Shown here in pieces: positions 1-33,663 of a stretch of DNA of 33,663 nucleotides. The position numbers and the translations under genes are program-made. The DNA comes from a virus (lineage: Duplodnaviria; Heunggongvirae; Uroviricota; Caudoviricetes), in the IMG/VR virus record IMGVR_UViG_3300045988_122351, positions 1 to 33,663 of that record; one strand, written 5' to 3'. How positions within the stretch are numbered: position 1 is the stretch's first letter; each line of letters opens with the position of its first letter. The notes under the pieces were generated by a model, which ran no database searches, was not told the DNA's origin, and saw nothing but the letters and a program-made list of their open reading frames with translations.

Positions 1-65
1 GTTTCGCTGAAAAACATAACCCATAAAATGCTAGCTGTACCAGGAACCACCTCCTTAGCCTGTGT

Positions 66-92
66 AATCTCCCTTACACGGGCTTATTTTTT
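66..92. repeat. att core copy, ogr-proximal junction
   Basis: aatctcccttacacgggcttatttttt is the reverse complement of the P2 attP core AAAAAATAAGCCCGTGTAAGGGAGATT as I recall it; identical copy at 33570..33596. Confidence 0.85.
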
Positions 93-156
93 ACGCGTAA
101 CACAATGAAATAAAAGGATTTATTTCTGGTCACGTCCACACATTGACCACATCGAC

Positions 157-180
157 AAAAAAGCCCCTCGACTGAGGGGC
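157..180 (-). terminator. Rho-independent terminator downstream of ogr
   Basis: Stem gcccctc (163..169) / gaggggc (174..180) with 4-nt loop; on the minus strand it is followed by a T-run (complement of aaaaaa 157..162). Confidence 0.6.
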
Positions 181-193
181 TTCCTGTTTGTAA

Positions 194-412
194 TTACATC
201 CACATAATTTGCTGCCCTGACGGCAACGGGTGCGGTCTTACGGCGTGGACTTCTCCCGGCTTCACGATGTATCGCTGTACCGACTCATAAGTGATGAATG
301 TGGCGCTGCAATTCACGTTCTGACACTGGTGATAACGCTCTTTTGTCGTGTCAGTGATATAGCGGCTTGTACGCGCATGTGCGGCATGCTGGCATAAAGG
401 ACAATGAAACAT
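194..412 (-). CDS. ogr: Ogr, zinc-finger late-gene transcription activator (72 aa)
   Basis: ORF 194..475; start placed at internal Met (MFHCPLCQ...) to give 72 aa; C-x2-C ... C-x4-C zinc-binding pattern; cat at 410..412; last gene before att as in P2. Confidence 0.85.
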   Translation of the reverse strand: MFHCPLCQHAAHARTSRYITDTTKERYHQCQNVNCSATFITYESVQRYIVKPGEVHAVRPHPLPSGQQIMWM

Positions 413-493: not shown

Positions 494-1657
494 TCACTCA
501 TCATCTTCTGTTTCGTACTCCACATCAGAAAGCCTGACCTCAAGCTCTAAGGACGTCGTGAAGCCGCTATTATTCAGAAAATGTGTCACCTTAGTGATTG
601 TCCAGTCCTGCTCGTCTATGACGCGCTTAAAGCCTGATACTTTAACCGGTGTTTCCGTGTAAATATCAGCACGACCGGTAGCCAGGCTGATGGAGAACTC
701 CGCAACGCCCCGTTGCAGTTTATCCCACTTCGCCTGAGCGGCACGCATGGCCTGTGCTTTCGTGGCATATACCGTGGTCAGGGCAAAAACGTTGTCAGCC
801 TCACCGGCCATGTATTCACCTTCGCGCGCTTCCGGTACTTTTGGCGCTTTCTTCTGCCTGACCGGTTTTGCTTTCGGGTGCTCCAGTGCGCGCAGGTGTT
901 TTTCTTTCTTTTTGCGTTTCAGTTTTACCTTCTGCTTTTGCGGCTTCGGGTCTTTGGTGTGTAACCACTTTGCCGTTACGCCGGTATAGGCTCCACGGTC
1001 AGCAATCGCAAAATGATGGCGGTCGCCGTCGCTGCGGGTGATGGTGACCTGCGGGATTTTTTTACCGCTGGCCGTCACCCCCTGCCCCGCTTTGAGAAAC
1101 AACAGTTTTCCCATTTTTACCGACACCTCACCGCCGTTGCGTTCTGCAAGACGGGTCAGGAATTTCGCATCAGACTCCTGCGACTGGTCGATGTGCGGGA
1201 TTTTAATTCCGGCCAGTGACGGAGCGACACTGGCTTCCAGCCTGTTACGGGAGGCTATCGCCTCAACAATCGCACCGAGCGTGGTGTCATGCCAGGAGCC
1301 TTCCCGGCGGGAATTGAGCGTCCCGCGGAAATCTGCACTCCGGGCGCGGATGGTGACCACATCCGGCGCGCCCCGGTGTTCAACCTCATCAACGGTGAAT
1401 TTCCCTTTGCATACCAGGGCAAAACCTTTCCAGCCGATATACACCGTCAGGACAGCGCCACGAACCGGCAGCCCGACCTGCCCGTCGGCATCGTTCAGTT
1501 CAATATCAAGCTGGTCAGCTTCAAAGCCCCGGTTATCCGTCAGAGTCATGCTCATCAGACGGTCGCTGATATTGCCGGTAATATCCCTGCTGTCGAGCAT
1601 CAGCATGTAATCCGGCGTCAGCGTACTGCCTGCATCAAATGTCAGCGCATCCAGCAT
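494..1657 (-). CDS. D: Tail protein D (387 aa)
   Basis: 387-aa ORF in the P2 gpD position and of the P2 gpD length; synteny with U and T. Confidence 0.85.
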   Translation of the reverse strand: MLDALTFDAGSTLTPDYMLMLDSRDITGNISDRLMSMTLTDNRGFEADQLDIELNDADGQVGLPVRGAVLTVYIGWKGFALVCKGKFTVDEVEHRGAPDVVTIRARSADFRGTLNSRREGSWHDTTLGAIVEAIASRNRLEASVAPSLAGIKIPHIDQSQESDAKFLTRLAERNGGEVSVKMGKLLFLKAGQGVTASGKKIPQVTITRSDGDRHHFAIADRGAYTGVTAKWLHTKDPKPQKQKVKLKRKKKEKHLRALEHPKAKPVRQKKAPKVPEAREGEYMAGEADNVFALTTVYATKAQAMRAAQAKWDKLQRGVAEFSISLATGRADIYTETPVKVSGFKRVIDEQDWTITKVTHFLNNSGFTTSLELEVRLSDVEYETEDDE

Positions 1658-2150: not shown

Positions 2151-4598
2151 TTAACCGTCATGCATCATGCTGGCACGGGCGCGCGCACGTTTATCCCGCT
2201 CGTATTTTTCGAGCGCATCCTGTAACTGGCGGTCGAGCTGAGTCCCCGGCGCAGTACCGCCCGTCAGACTGATGTGATATTCGTTTTTACTCTGGTCCAC
2301 ATAAGAGCGGCCAGCCGGTGCCGTAACCGGCTGATAAGCCTGATAGCCTGCATAAGAGCTGGTCGCCGGAATATAACCACCGGTGCCATACGTGGCGGCA
2401 TGAGTTCTGGCGGCGGTCTGGTCAAGCGTGCCTGACTCTTTGTTGATAACACCGAGTTTTTCCAGTACCCAGTCAATACCGCTGCGCAGTTTGTTGAACG
2501 CATTAAGCGGCAGCATCAACGCGTCAGCCAGTGCCTGCCCGAACATGACGCCCGTATCACGGCAACGGTTCAGGGTGTCCCGGGTGGCTTTGACCGGGGC
2601 AATCAGGTTTTTAAACCACTGCCACGCGGCCTGTAACTTTTCGCCCAGCCAGTCAAACACCGGCTTAAGTGGCGTGAACAGTTCCCCCACCGGCGCAAAT
2701 GCCGCTTTCAGCCCTTCAACCACACCGCCAAAGAATGCGCTGACAGACTCCCAGTATTTACGGATAAGTAACGCCCCGGCGACAATGGCGGCCCCCACGG
2801 CCACAACCGGCCAGCTAATCGCCCCGATGGCCGTCACAACAGCACTGCCAACCGTCGTGAAGATTGCTCCCATTGCGCCTGCTGCCGCGATGATGGCATT
2901 GATGCCGGTGATAACCGGCCAGGCTACGAGGCCAATGGCACCGATGACACCAATCAGCGCCAGTGCACCACCGACAATGATGCCGATGGTTGACGCCAGT
3001 GATTTGTTTTTCTGTATCCAGCCGTCGAGTTTTAACACATACTTTGTGGCCGTCTGCGTGAGCTTACGCAGTGCGCCTTCCTGCTGGTCAAACAGGTCAG
3101 TCCCCACCGCCTCATAAGCGGACTGAAACTCCTTAAAGTCACCGCCGAGGTTGTCCTGCATGATATTTACCAGCTCGGCGGTCTTCCCGTCTGAGGCTTT
3201 AAACGCAGCGGTCAGTTTGTCCAGCTTTCCAGTTGAGGCGGCAGTCATCAGCACGGCGGCGGCTGAGCTGACCTCCTCCCCGAAAATAGTTTTCATGTAT
3301 TCAGCCTGCTGGGCAGTACCGAGCCGGTTTTTCTCAAAACTGGCCTGCATTTCTTTCAGAATGGTAAATACTGGTCGAGTATTCCCTTTACTGTCTGAGG
3401 TTTTCACGCCAAGCTCTTTCAGTGCATCCCATGCTTTTCCCGTCGGTGCCTGCAGGCGGCTTAACACGGCACGGCTCCCCGCCCCCGCCATTGAACCGGT
3501 AATTTTTGCATCATGCAGCGCCCCGACCATTGCGGCGGTTTCTTCAATGCTGACACCAGCATTTTTTGCCACAGGTGCGGCATAGGTCAGCGCATCGCTC
3601 ATGCCATCAAAATCGGCGGCGGTTTTGTTCATCGTCATGGAGAGAACATCCCCGATATGAGCGACCTTATCGTTTGAAAGCTGAAAGGCGGATTTCATCC
3701 CCATCAGCAGGGCGGCGTTTTCTTCCATCGTGCGACGGTTCGCCAGCGCCATATTCAGCGTGACCGGCGTTGCCGCCTGAATGGCATCAACATCCCCACC
3801 GGCTTTCGCAATAATAATCTGCGCACCGGCTGCATCATCTGCCGAGGCTGCGGTATTGTCGCCGAGCTGGCGCGCCTGCTTGCGTAGTGCAGCCATTTCG
3901 GCGGAGTCTTTTGCCACACCGAGCACAGCCTGCAATTCTGAGTTTTTCTGCGCAAACTCATAACCGGGCATCAGCAACTTAACTCCGGCCATCGTTCCCG
4001 CAGCAGCAATCCCCACACCGGCAGCGCCCACTGAGGCCATATTTCCGGCCAGTTCCTTTCCGGCCTGATAACGCTGTTTTACTGCGTTAAGTTTTGCCTG
4101 TTGTGCACTGACACGCGCCAGCGCGTCACGCTGACGGTTAAGCTGTGCGGTGGTTTCACTGATACGGTTTTTCAGTCCCTGCTCATCATGTGCAAGATTG
4201 CGGGTATTAATTCCCACAGCGGCCAGTTCCCGCTGCTGGCGTTTAATGGAATCTGTCAGGCGGTTATATTTCGCCTGTAAGTCCTCCGCCGCACGCTTTG
4301 CGGATTCCAGCACTTTCGCCTGAGCACGGGTCGGACGTTCAGTGTTTTTAAACTGTGTGGCAAGGGCTTCGGCTTCCTGCCGTGCCTTTTCAAGTGCATG
4401 ACCAGTCACGGCAAGCTGTGCGCTGGTCTTGCGAAATCCCTCAATACGGGATGCGTGACCGTTCAGCTCGCGCAGTGATTTTTGTGTTTCCCGGATATCC
4501 CCCGACAGCGACTTACTCGCTGTGCGGATGGATTTAAACGGGCGGGATGCCTGGTCAACAGCCCTGAGCAATACCTGTAATTTTACATTGTTACTCAT
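2151..4598 (-). CDS. T: Tail tape measure protein T (815 aa)
   Basis: 815-aa Ala/Gly-rich ORF with coiled-coil N-terminus and hydrophobic central stretch; directly downstream of E/E'. Confidence 0.9.
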   Translation of the reverse strand: MSNNVKLQVLLRAVDQASRPFKSIRTASKSLSGDIRETQKSLRELNGHASRIEGFRKTSAQLAVTGHALEKARQEAEALATQFKNTERPTRAQAKVLESAKRAAEDLQAKYNRLTDSIKRQQRELAAVGINTRNLAHDEQGLKNRISETTAQLNRQRDALARVSAQQAKLNAVKQRYQAGKELAGNMASVGAAGVGIAAAGTMAGVKLLMPGYEFAQKNSELQAVLGVAKDSAEMAALRKQARQLGDNTAASADDAAGAQIIIAKAGGDVDAIQAATPVTLNMALANRRTMEENAALLMGMKSAFQLSNDKVAHIGDVLSMTMNKTAADFDGMSDALTYAAPVAKNAGVSIEETAAMVGALHDAKITGSMAGAGSRAVLSRLQAPTGKAWDALKELGVKTSDSKGNTRPVFTILKEMQASFEKNRLGTAQQAEYMKTIFGEEVSSAAAVLMTAASTGKLDKLTAAFKASDGKTAELVNIMQDNLGGDFKEFQSAYEAVGTDLFDQQEGALRKLTQTATKYVLKLDGWIQKNKSLASTIGIIVGGALALIGVIGAIGLVAWPVITGINAIIAAAGAMGAIFTTVGSAVVTAIGAISWPVVAVGAAIVAGALLIRKYWESVSAFFGGVVEGLKAAFAPVGELFTPLKPVFDWLGEKLQAAWQWFKNLIAPVKATRDTLNRCRDTGVMFGQALADALMLPLNAFNKLRSGIDWVLEKLGVINKESGTLDQTAARTHAATYGTGGYIPATSSYAGYQAYQPVTAPAGRSYVDQSKNEYHISLTGGTAPGTQLDRQLQDALEKYERDKRARARASMMHDG

Positions 4599-31681: not shown

Positions 31682-31943
31682 CGAGACCTAACCACATCAA
31701 CCAGCCGTCACGAATCTCTTTAGGACGGCTTTCATAAGCCAGTTTTAGTCCGTTATTCCATGCCGGAAGGTATACCCAATATTCACCAGCACGCCCCGAT
31801 ACTGACTGAGGGTCAGTAATCTCAATAACTGGTAATTTCCCTTTCTCAATCATGCCCCTTACAGCTCTTGGAGTTTTACCAATGAGTTTTGCAAACTCCT
31901 GATAAGGCACGGCATCAGTCACGCTTACAAGCTGTCTATTCAT
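31668..31943 (-). CDS. cox: Cox, excision/lytic-switch protein (91 aa)
   Basis: 91-aa ORF divergent from C, first gene of the early operon. Confidence 0.8.
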   Translation of the reverse strand: MNRQLVSVTDAVPYQEFAKLIGKTPRAVRGMIEKGKLPVIEITDPQSVSGRAGEYWVYLPAWNNGLKLAYESRPKEIRDGWLMWLGLGEPR

Positions 31944-32064: not shown

Positions 32065-32499
32065 ATGTCAATAGACGTTTCGGAGAAGTTGAAGCTAATC
32101 CGTGAATCTGAAAGGTTAAACCGTAAAGAATTCAGTGAATTAACTGGTGTAGCCTACAGCTCACTTTCGAGCTATGAGAGCCGGTCAAAAAACGCTGGAG
32201 TTGAAGCCATAATGAAGGTCTTACAACATCCCAGATTTACTAAATATACTTTGTGGTTCATGACTGATCAGGTAGCTCCAGAAGCCGGGCAAATTGCGCC
32301 CGCTCTCGCACTTTGGGCAAAACGAAACAACGTCGCCCCACTCCGGTCAAAAGACTGGTTAACAATTTATCGTGAATATATTCATCACAAGTGCCTACTA
32401 TTGGTGGCTAAATTTCAGCCACCACGAAAAAAGCGATTAGTAGTAGCAAAAAAAGTACCACTCGGAGGGTTTTCTGATGGCAATCAAAAAACTCGATGA
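32065..32499 (+). CDS. C: C-like immunity repressor, long variant (144 aa)
   Basis: ORF 31993..32499; start at ATG 32065 (MSIDVSEKLKLIRESE...) after GGAG; N-terminal part resembles P2 C as I recall it, but the frame runs to 144 aa and overlaps the int start. Confidence 0.7.
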   Translation: MSIDVSEKLKLIRESERLNRKEFSELTGVAYSSLSSYESRSKNAGVEAIMKVLQHPRFTKYTLWFMTDQVAPEAGQIAPALALWAKRNNVAPLRSKDWLTIYREYIHHKCLLLVAKFQPPRKKRLVVAKKVPLGGFSDGNQKTR

Positions 32500-33490
32500 T
32501 GGTCGATATGAAGTGGACATCCGCCCTACTGGACGTAACGGAAAACGCATCCGTAGGAAGTTTGATAAGAAAAGCGAAGCTGTCGCTTTCGAAAAATACA
32601 CGTTGTACAACCACCACAATAAAGAATGGCTATCAAAACCAACAGACAAACGACGTCTGTCGGAACTGACACAGATCTGGTGGGATTTAAAGGGTAAACA
32701 CGAAGAGCATGGGAAATCTAATCTTGGAAAAATTGAAATCTTCACAAAAATAACGAATGACCCATGCGCATTTCAAATCACGAAATCCCTTATCAGCCAG
32801 TACTGCGCCACCCGAAGAAGTCAGGGTATTAAACCTTCGAGTATCAATCGTGATTTAACATGTATTAGCGGCATGTTTACAGCTCTGATTGAAGCGGAGT
32901 TATTCTTTGGTGAGCACCCTATCAGAGGGACAAAGAGGCTTAAGGAGGAAAAACCAGAAACAGGCTATCTCACACAGGAAGAAATTGCCTTACTGCTTGC
33001 AGCACTTGACGGCGACAATAAAAAGATTGCGATTCTTTGCCTGAGTACAGGAGCACGTTGGGGAGAAGCAGCTCGTTTGAAAGCAGAAAATATCATCCAT
33101 AACCGCGTCACGTTTGTTAAAACGAAAACAAACAAACCACGCACCGTCCCGATCTCAGAGGCTGTTGCCAAAATGATCGCGGATAACAAACGAGGTTTTT
33201 TATTCCCTGATGCTGATTACCCTCGCTTCAGACGAACAATGAAAGCAATAAAACCGGATTTGCCAATGGGGCAAGCCACACATGCACTAAGGCACAGCTT
33301 TGCCACTCATTTCATGATTAATGGAGGAAGTATTATCACGCTACAACGGATACTAGGTCACACGCGGATTGAGCAAACTATGGTTTACGCTCATTTTGCG
33401 CCAGAGTACCTTCAGGACGCCATTTCTCTTAATCCGCTAAGAGGTGGTACTGAGGCCGAGAGTGTCCACACAGTGTCCACAGTAGAGTAA
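32477..33490 (+). CDS. int: Integrase, tyrosine recombinase (337 aa)
   Basis: 337-aa ORF next to the att core; catalytic HALRHSFATHF (H-x-x-R), LGH, and Tyr in MVYAHF; sequence appears essentially P2 Int-like. Confidence 0.9.
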   Translation: MAIKKLDDGRYEVDIRPTGRNGKRIRRKFDKKSEAVAFEKYTLYNHHNKEWLSKPTDKRRLSELTQIWWDLKGKHEEHGKSNLGKIEIFTKITNDPCAFQITKSLISQYCATRRSQGIKPSSINRDLTCISGMFTALIEAELFFGEHPIRGTKRLKEEKPETGYLTQEEIALLLAALDGDNKKIAILCLSTGARWGEAARLKAENIIHNRVTFVKTKTNKPRTVPISEAVAKMIADNKRGFLFPDADYPRFRRTMKAIKPDLPMGQATHALRHSFATHFMINGGSIITLQRILGHTRIEQTMVYAHFAPEYLQDAISLNPLRGGTEAESVHTVSTVE

Positions 33491-33569
33491 CGTTTAAGGG
33501 CTTTCAGTGGTAATTTATGCCGCTCAAACCCGCATTGTACCGTTGAAAGCCCCTACTGGTGACACCCTA

Positions 33570-33596
33570 AATCTCCCTTACACGGGCTTATTTTTT
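33570..33596. repeat. att core copy, int-proximal junction
   Basis: Exact 27-bp direct repeat of 66..92 (28 bp counting the following a), about 80 bp downstream of the int stop. Confidence 0.85.
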
Positions 33597-33663
33597 ATGC
33601 ATAAGCCCTATCCCTGGTCACCGTCTTCCATTGACCACATCGATAGAATCTCCCTTAATAGCA

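Follow-up and report, generated by a model that had tools for sequence, protein, structure and literature searches.

The genome paper on Escherichia coli W includes "cyaR RNA" among the P2-type insertion sites, places the K-12 element "ogr-D′" at cyaR and scores the site in strain Crooks as empty (PMC3032704). The K-12 element is a cryptic remnant (ogrK and a gene D fragment, yegZ) and likewise represents, as the locus described here most probably does, a P2-like prophage that was deleted at the cyaR core with its ogr-side arm kept. At the K-12 locus (L003) the cyaR core is followed by the arm, ogrK, the D fragment, a truncated core (TACACGGGCTTATTTTTTT) and then by the same flank as at our locus, so this flank is older than the K-12 remnant and not part of it. 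The two also differ in age and content: the K-12 remnant is of recent date (97% identity to our window), retains two genes and is strain-specific, whereas the insert studied here has no phage genes, has arms that are 59–76% identical to those of the phage, is found species-wide and is older.

A second class of related systems is formed by the decayed direct repeats and stacked islands at the 3′ ends of tRNA, tmRNA and sRNA genes, in which the repeat next to the gene, being part of the RNA gene itself, is preserved, the distal repeat decays and the site is reused. Our locus departs from these in that the target is the terminator of an Hfq-dependent sRNA rather than a tRNA, and in that the int gene of an incoming element ends up distal to the RNA gene. 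The third comparison is with the P2 attachment site itself. As in P2 attP, the core is followed by an ogr-side arm with Int repeats, and an int-side Cox region with Int repeats precedes a distal core; in contrast to attP, 0.8 kb of unrelated, AT-rich DNA lies between the arms, which point outward as they would in an integrated element; one of the repeats has been lost, the IHF region is shorter and the distal core matches at 18/27 positions.

The window (the whole stretch of DNA analyzed, 33,663 nucleotides from IMG/VR record IMGVR_UViG_3300045988_122351) comprises a complete P2-like prophage and, on either side of it, about 65 nt of flanking DNA. Our analysis places at about 0.88 the probability that in its right flank survives the ogr-side arm of an ancient P2-like element, deleted almost in full, that has become fixed in E. 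coli; the arm most likely has no present function.

The resident prophage and its attachment site

The gene for the CyaR/RyeE sRNA occupies positions 4–89 (plus strand) and matches Rfam family RF00112 across the full model, terminator included (model positions 1–85 of 85; E = 3.2e-19; 100.7 bits, with the gathering score at 47). The hairpin and T-run of its terminator, the sole terminator-like site in the region between cyaR and yegS, constitute the P2 att core. This 27-bp core (AATCTCCCTTACACGGGCTTATTTTTT) forms a direct repeat that is identical at both prophage ends, at 66–92 (plus strand; the ogr-side junction, attR in the P2 convention) and at 33570–33596 (plus strand; the int-side junction, attL), and in a repeat search the similarity between the junctions extends 8 nt beyond it. 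It corresponds to the "attP core" annotated in P2 (GenBank AF063097, the annotation source for all att mapping), and each end of the prophage therefore carries the core of a P2-type (Peduovirus) integration junction. The copy at 66–92 is supplied by the phage and completes cyaR; that is, the P2-like phage integrates at the CyaR terminator and supplies a replacement terminator.

An attP of 605 nt, rebuilt by joining int-side and ogr-side sequence through a single core, is contiguous in P2 (97.9% identity) and in Peduovirus P24C9 (99.5%), so the boundaries between phage and host coincide with the core. Mapping of the P2 annotation places on the ogr side an IHF-binding region (91–124, plus strand), an Int arm-type binding site (the "P arm," 128–155, plus strand) with two repeats (CGTCCACA at 133–140 and TGACCACA at 144–151), the rho-independent terminator of ogr and the F operon (160–183, minus strand) and the late-gene activator ogr (194–412, minus strand), which matching records also name ogrK/Ogr. 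The gene int, for a P2-type tyrosine integrase, lies at 32477–33490 (plus strand), where its start and stop codons were read; it is annotated as a site-specific integrase at 3278–4291 of L002, a strain with an int-flank stretch identical to window positions 33200–33663. The int-side (P′) arm, mapped in the same way to 33456–33553 (plus strand), comprises Int arm-type repeats at 33456–33482 and a Cox-binding region at 33480–33553. The consensus of P2-type arm repeats is tgTGGaCa, or tGtCCAca on the opposite strand (PMC3448106). Prophage junctions of the window type are present in 819 genomes.

The right flank

According to the original prediction, the right flank looks like a decayed second att region, on the strength of two short blocks shared with the phage arm inside the other junction. 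Both blocks are where they were said to be: CTGGTCAC at 126–133 and 33614–33621, and CATTGACCACATCGA at 141–155 and 33629–33643; the latter has just these two copies in the window, even with one mismatch allowed (0 expected from 100 shuffles). They had been described as differently spaced. From block to block the spacing is in fact equal in the two copies (15 nt from start to start), and it is the distance to the core that is 16 nt shorter in the flank. A repeat search found 121–160 and 33609–33648 to be 75% identical without gaps, and local alignment of the flank (33597–33663) with the ogr-side arm (93–190) gave a score of 44, against 16.1 ± 3.3 for shuffled sequences (none of 5,000 reached 44); none of the other 98-nt pieces of the prophage scored above 31 against the flank. 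Because the P2 annotation places the P-arm site on them, the shared blocks in the flank correspond to the ogr-side Int arm-type binding site.

The putative fossil P arm occupies 33597–33648 (plus strand), where 37 of 52 aligned positions match the P arm of the resident phage, with one additional gap of 16 nt that falls inside the region mapped to the IHF site. Its second Int repeat, TGACCACA, is exact (33632–33639); the first has degraded to CGTCTTCC (33622–33629), with two of the four strongly conserved positions lost. The flank accordingly lacks what characterizes a functional arm of the P2 attP type, namely two direct repeats of tgTGGaCa and an IHF site at native spacing between core and repeats. 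P2-like prophages that occupy cyaR in Citrobacter and Enterobacter share the conserved motif ATTGACCACAT(C/T)GA in their ogr-side arms; in the arm from Salmonella diarizonae (L101), ATTGACCACAT is kept and is followed by TAA.

This flank is widespread in E. coli. A query made by joining window positions 1–92 to 33597–33663, with matches counted at a query coverage of at least 80%, detected an unoccupied site with the window flank in 4208 of the 5426 complete E. coli genomes; in many of them the identity was 100%. The flank (33597–33663, plus strand) makes up the opening 67 nt of an insert of 975 nt, the anatomy of which was established from the continuation in L001 and L002 and from alignments; the whole insert is present in 5424 of the 5426 genomes. 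The claim that the flank is something other than plain host DNA thus stands insofar as it contains an att relic, but the sequence belongs to E. coli at large and is not peculiar to one strain. In strain SA186 (L001) the gene order is baeSR, yegP, yegQ, cyaR, yegR (minus strand), yegS and the gat operon. The 1060 nt after the core in L002 are identical to L001 4093–5152, with yegR about 260 nt beyond the window end, followed by yegS and gatD.

Extension to the right had been proposed as a way of finding ogr-like or other P2-remnant genes. The extensions in L001 and L002 contain no phage genes, ogr included, but just yegR, yegS and the gat operon; nor is a K-12-type ogrK/D′ remnant found to the right of the window, where only yegR, yegS and gatD follow. 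What extension did reveal, about 0.9 kb away, is more P2 homology in the form of an int-side arm and a decayed core.

A further match had been taken as a renewed occurrence of the att core: AATCTCCCTTA, the first 11 nt of the core, recurs exactly at 33647–33657 (plus strand). The match is genuine (three copies, at 66–76, 33570–33580 and 33647–33657, against 0.02 expected), but carries less weight than the two blocks, and its reading as another core is probably mistaken. In the best-preserved allele, that of strain M160133 (see below), the sequence at this position is AATTCCCCTTC; local alignment pairs ATCGATAGAATTCCCCTTC of this allele with ATCGACAAAAAAGCCCCTC of the phage and runs from the arm repeat into phage AAAAAGCCCCTC, the start of the ogr terminator stem. 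Exact identity to the core is, moreover, a feature of some lineages only, with AATCTCCCTTC in O157 and others, AATCCTCCTTC in K-12 and ATCCCCCTTC in ECMA0423. An exact 48-mer around the 11-mer occurs in 568 genomes, and the same 48-mer with up to two mismatches in 3147, a figure that is not a count of the 10-mer AATCTCCCTT itself. Judged from these alignments, the 11-mer is most likely decayed ogr terminator stem that has a chance identity to the start of the core in this lineage.

Alternatively, positions 33647–33657 could be the stub of a third core, in which case two older events, one nested in the other (core, arm, core stub), would be recorded in the flank. Apart from the exactness of the match to the first 11 nt, it may be said for this interpretation that core 11-mers arise in 15 of 3,000 shuffles of the 948-nt interior of the insert and that the 10-nt version AATCTCCCTT is found in 4 of 10 sequenced alleles (L131, L132, L141–L143 and L145). 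We consider it unlikely: the sequence after the 11-mer resembles neither the rest of the core nor any arm, the best-preserved allele aligns with the terminator stem as described above, the variants in K-12 and ECMA0423 depart from the core, and at the level of 10-mers the comparison comes to just 97 of 3,000 shuffles.

The insert between cyaR and yegS

The interval downstream of cyaR was scanned in one genome per species, with the conserved part of cyaR as query, giving at least 120 loci across Enterobacterales. In most of these listed species loci 74–150 nt separate the cyaR T-run from yegS; the distance is 1060 nt in E. coli and 1511 nt in K-12. Matches in other species to the E. coli interval are confined to its last ~90 nt. 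In Escherichia sp. E1V33, whose yegQ is 93.7% identical to that of E. coli, cyaR and yegS are 85 nt apart, and the core is followed by GCCTCACGACTTTCATCCTGTTCTGAC and then by yegS. The E. coli spacer (TCCTCCGACTTTCATCCTGTTCTGAC) is identical to that of E1V33 at 27 of 33 positions and is preceded by AATCCCCATACCTGAACTGACTTTTTA, a decayed core identical to the intact one at 18 of 27 positions. A three-way alignment shows that the decayed core sits exactly at the start of the spacer homology and that the sequence to its left can be aligned to the int-side arm of the phage. Relative to the unoccupied site, E. coli therefore has an insertion bounded by a duplicated core, with both attP arms in prophage orientation (ogr-side after the proximal core, int-side before the distal one). 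Beyond the window the order is a hairpin, yegR (minus strand), the int-side arm relic, the decayed core, the ancestral spacer and yegS; the GC content of the insert is 37%, against 54% for yegQ.

In the common allele the int-side arm relic is identical to the phage at 43 of 73 positions (score 38.5 against 18.1 ± 2.7 for shuffles, none of 2,000 reaching it); it was missed by blastn of the insert against the window and was found by targeted local alignment with shuffles. Alleles 80–90% identical to the common one occur in 17 genomes, of which one, M160133 (L140), was read. Its ogr-side arm is of full length, including the segment missing in the common allele, and is identical to the phage at 57 of 75 positions (score 65 against 16.2 ± 2.7 for shuffles). 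Its int-side arm is identical at 97 of 128 positions (score 117 against 18.4 ± 2.8) and holds both Int arm repeats together with the int stop codon, the remnant of int being limited to the last ~40 nt of the gene. The interior, including yegR, is that of the same insert at ~90% identity, and the repeat region of the ogr-side arm has one substitution (CATTGACCATATCGA). The comparison suggests that the common allele has lost ~60 nt in the int-side arm, and the left part of its own alignment is uncertain. Because M160133 bridges the phage arms and the common allele, doubt about the homology is removed; the proposed phage identity rests on arms of ~50 and 70 nt in the common allele, or ~75 and 130 nt in M160133, plus the duplicated core.

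Within the insert, tblastn with 385 window reading frames detected no remnants of P2 proteins above noise, and no recognizable phage genes or pseudogenes (ogr, D or int) are found. A search of 50,697 phage records with the insert DNA and YegR returned two matches only, both in records that extend into host flank. The 105-aa protein YegR has a lipoprotein-like N-terminus and is found essentially only in E. coli and Shigella; its few homologs, at 44–83% identity, lie in unrelated chromosomal or IS-rich loci, and their contexts provide no link to P2. YegR had no match in the Pfam copy scanned; precomputed database annotation gives PF27694 (YegR). A horizontal origin is likely for the E. coli-specific yegR and its AT-rich surroundings, and the interior, including yegR, could have arrived after the original element.

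Homologs 76–83% identical to YegR are present on enteric metagenome contigs (L134, L135 and L138) at a locus other than that of E. coli yegR; there the homolog is followed by a conserved gene of ~110 aa without a Pfam match, between glutaminase and nitroreductase genes. A match of YegR to phrog_21109 was set aside as evidence of phage origin, as it most likely reflects prophage calls that overshoot. The family may stem from calls such as ON470606.1 ("Escherichia phage vB_EcoM-720R8, partial genome"), in which positions 31914–34824 (L139), ~2.9 kb, are host DNA; the record overruns the int-side core and continues through the whole insert into yegR, yegS and the gat repressor.

Three structural features of the insert were observed in addition. 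One AT-rich segment, 172 nt long and situated between hairpin and yegR (L001 4248–4419, ~650 nt right of the core), is present in SA186, in the strain type of the window and in M160133 and is absent from K-12, O157 and several others, and so constitutes an indel polymorphism. An inverted repeat, AGCACGATG(CC)...(GG)CATCGTGCT, with a stem of 9–11 bp extends from window positions 33660–33663 to L001 4156–4188; it is kept in all alleles read and has no T-run after it on either strand. In E. coli 30EVA2 (L133) the last 234 nt of the interval remain, abutted by IS1 and a different truncated prophage (terminase, portal), an arrangement which means that the insert can be lost by later rearrangement.

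Origin of the flank and reuse of the site

Two explanations had been offered for the flank, the remnant of an earlier P2-like prophage and a repeatedly used attachment site, and both are borne out. An intact core delimits the insert on one side and a decayed core on the other, each end carries an arm relic, and the insert is absent from E1V33 and most other Enterobacterales; the resident phage, for its part, entered at the core adjoining the scar of the older element. The suggested comparison with unoccupied loci, in which the same flank lies downstream of cyaR and E1V33 has no insert, likewise supports the older element.

In the sequence of events that we propose, a P2-like element would have integrated at cyaR after the split from an E1V33-like lineage and before E. 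coli diversified (the timing is approximate), and its genes would have been removed by deletions. The distal core, lying outside cyaR and thus no longer part of the gene, would have drifted to its present state, and the proximal core would have been kept intact by selection on the CyaR terminator. Later P2-like phages would recombine with this proximal core and hence always enter there, their int-side junction being set against the fossil arm.

The fossil arm is most likely without function because one Int repeat is degraded and 16 nt of the IHF region are missing. That the relic still works, its intact Int repeat recruiting P2 Int and favoring locI or altering excision, appears improbable from the sequence comparisons. 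The repeat at 33632–33639 does equal the second arm repeat of the phage, with all four strongly conserved positions kept, and the 26 nt around it are invariant in seven common alleles; among these alleles, a small and related sample, variable columns make up 7.7% of the ogr-side arm relic against 12.8% just downstream (22.5% in the int-side arm relic, 21.4% in the decayed core and 4.7% in both yegR and the ancestral spacer). However, the M160133 substitution noted above is a change within those 26 nt, the first repeat is degraded, and the 16-nt loss brings the remaining repeat ~1.5 helical turns nearer the core. There is a slim chance that P2-type integrases still bind the fossil Int repeat, which lies 37 nt from the core, and that the repeat in this way tunes recombination at cyaR. 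If this were true, a fixed prophage scar would shape the behavior of every later P2-like phage in E. coli, with the cyaR site favored over secondary sites or excision changed by an int-side junction that is partly attP-like.

The relationship between flank and phage could also run in the opposite direction, imprecise excision having given the phage its ogr-side arm out of the host DNA that follows cyaR, with the flank as the original. The attP cores of elements that target RNA genes copy the 3′ end of the target gene, and the junction similarity that runs 8 nt past the core is compatible with such a capture. Against it, the arm motif occurs in cyaR prophages of Citrobacter, Enterobacter and, in part, Salmonella (L101, ATTGACCACAT only), whereas unoccupied sites in other species of those genera (L042, L024 and L039) lack the motif and lead straight into yegS, and E1V33 and most genera are without the sequence. 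Capture cannot, furthermore, yield an int-side arm and a second core at the far end of the insert, and we regard it as very improbable. Chance matches, or a second, tandem prophage at the right edge of the window, have nothing in their favor except that the window stops 67 nt past the core; the shuffle tests exclude chance and L002 continues into yegR, yegS and gatD without phage genes, so that this explanation can be dismissed.

The remnant of an older P2-like element, our preferred reading, is thus a real but ordinary evolutionary scar at a site that has been used repeatedly. Other scars at cyaR were noted during the survey. At the deletion in the K-12 remnant (L003 2190–2225, compared with window 690–715), gene D (...GAGAACTC) is joined to mid-core sequence (TGCTACACGGGCTT...); the corresponding stretch of intact D, CTCCGCAACGCCCCGTT, agrees with the core, CTCCCTTACACGGGCTT, at about half of the positions, and the deletion could have been microhomology-mediated, or Int-mediated at a secondary site. 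In Enterobacter, Pseudescherichia and Buttiauxella (L019, L056, L030, L016 and L073) the cyaR–yegS interval contains inserts of 0.5–2 kb that end, 78–87 nt before yegS, in a second core-like sequence (in E. hormaechei, for instance, CCCTTACGCGGGCTTATTTTTT), which suggests independent integration scars at cyaR in these genera; since such second-core islands occur in several genera, repeated use of the cyaR site is general.

Two further loci contain arm-like sequence. In Escherichia albertii (L108) a young-looking relic of the ogr-side arm (ACGCGTAATTTAATGAAATAATAGGGTTTATTTCTGATCGCGTCCAC) lies in the first 50 nt after the core and ends inside the first Int repeat; unrelated AT-rich DNA comes next, its first ~300 nt IS-like by eye, and yegS is not within the next 3 kb. 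A metagenome-assembled genome labeled "Proteobacteria bacterium OH_SBB_50" (L008) has a short arm-like stretch (CAGGCCACCTGTACGCACTGACCATCTCGAT) downstream of cyaR, in 380 nt of sequence, that is closer to the E. coli fossil arm than to a live phage arm.

Full-text literature searches found no account in which the yegR insert is described as a fossil prophage, and an earlier description elsewhere is possible; the scoring of the Crooks site as empty means that the insert was not counted as a mobile element in that comparison (PMC3032704). On the reading preferred here, P2-like elements used the cyaR terminator before E. coli diversified, and the "empty" reference site of P2 is itself a prophage scar. 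Arm-like and core-like repeats of this kind, lying outside the real junction, can mislead the calling of prophage boundaries, and the locus provides a worked example of an attachment site at which the gene-proximal att repeat is preserved and the distal one decays.
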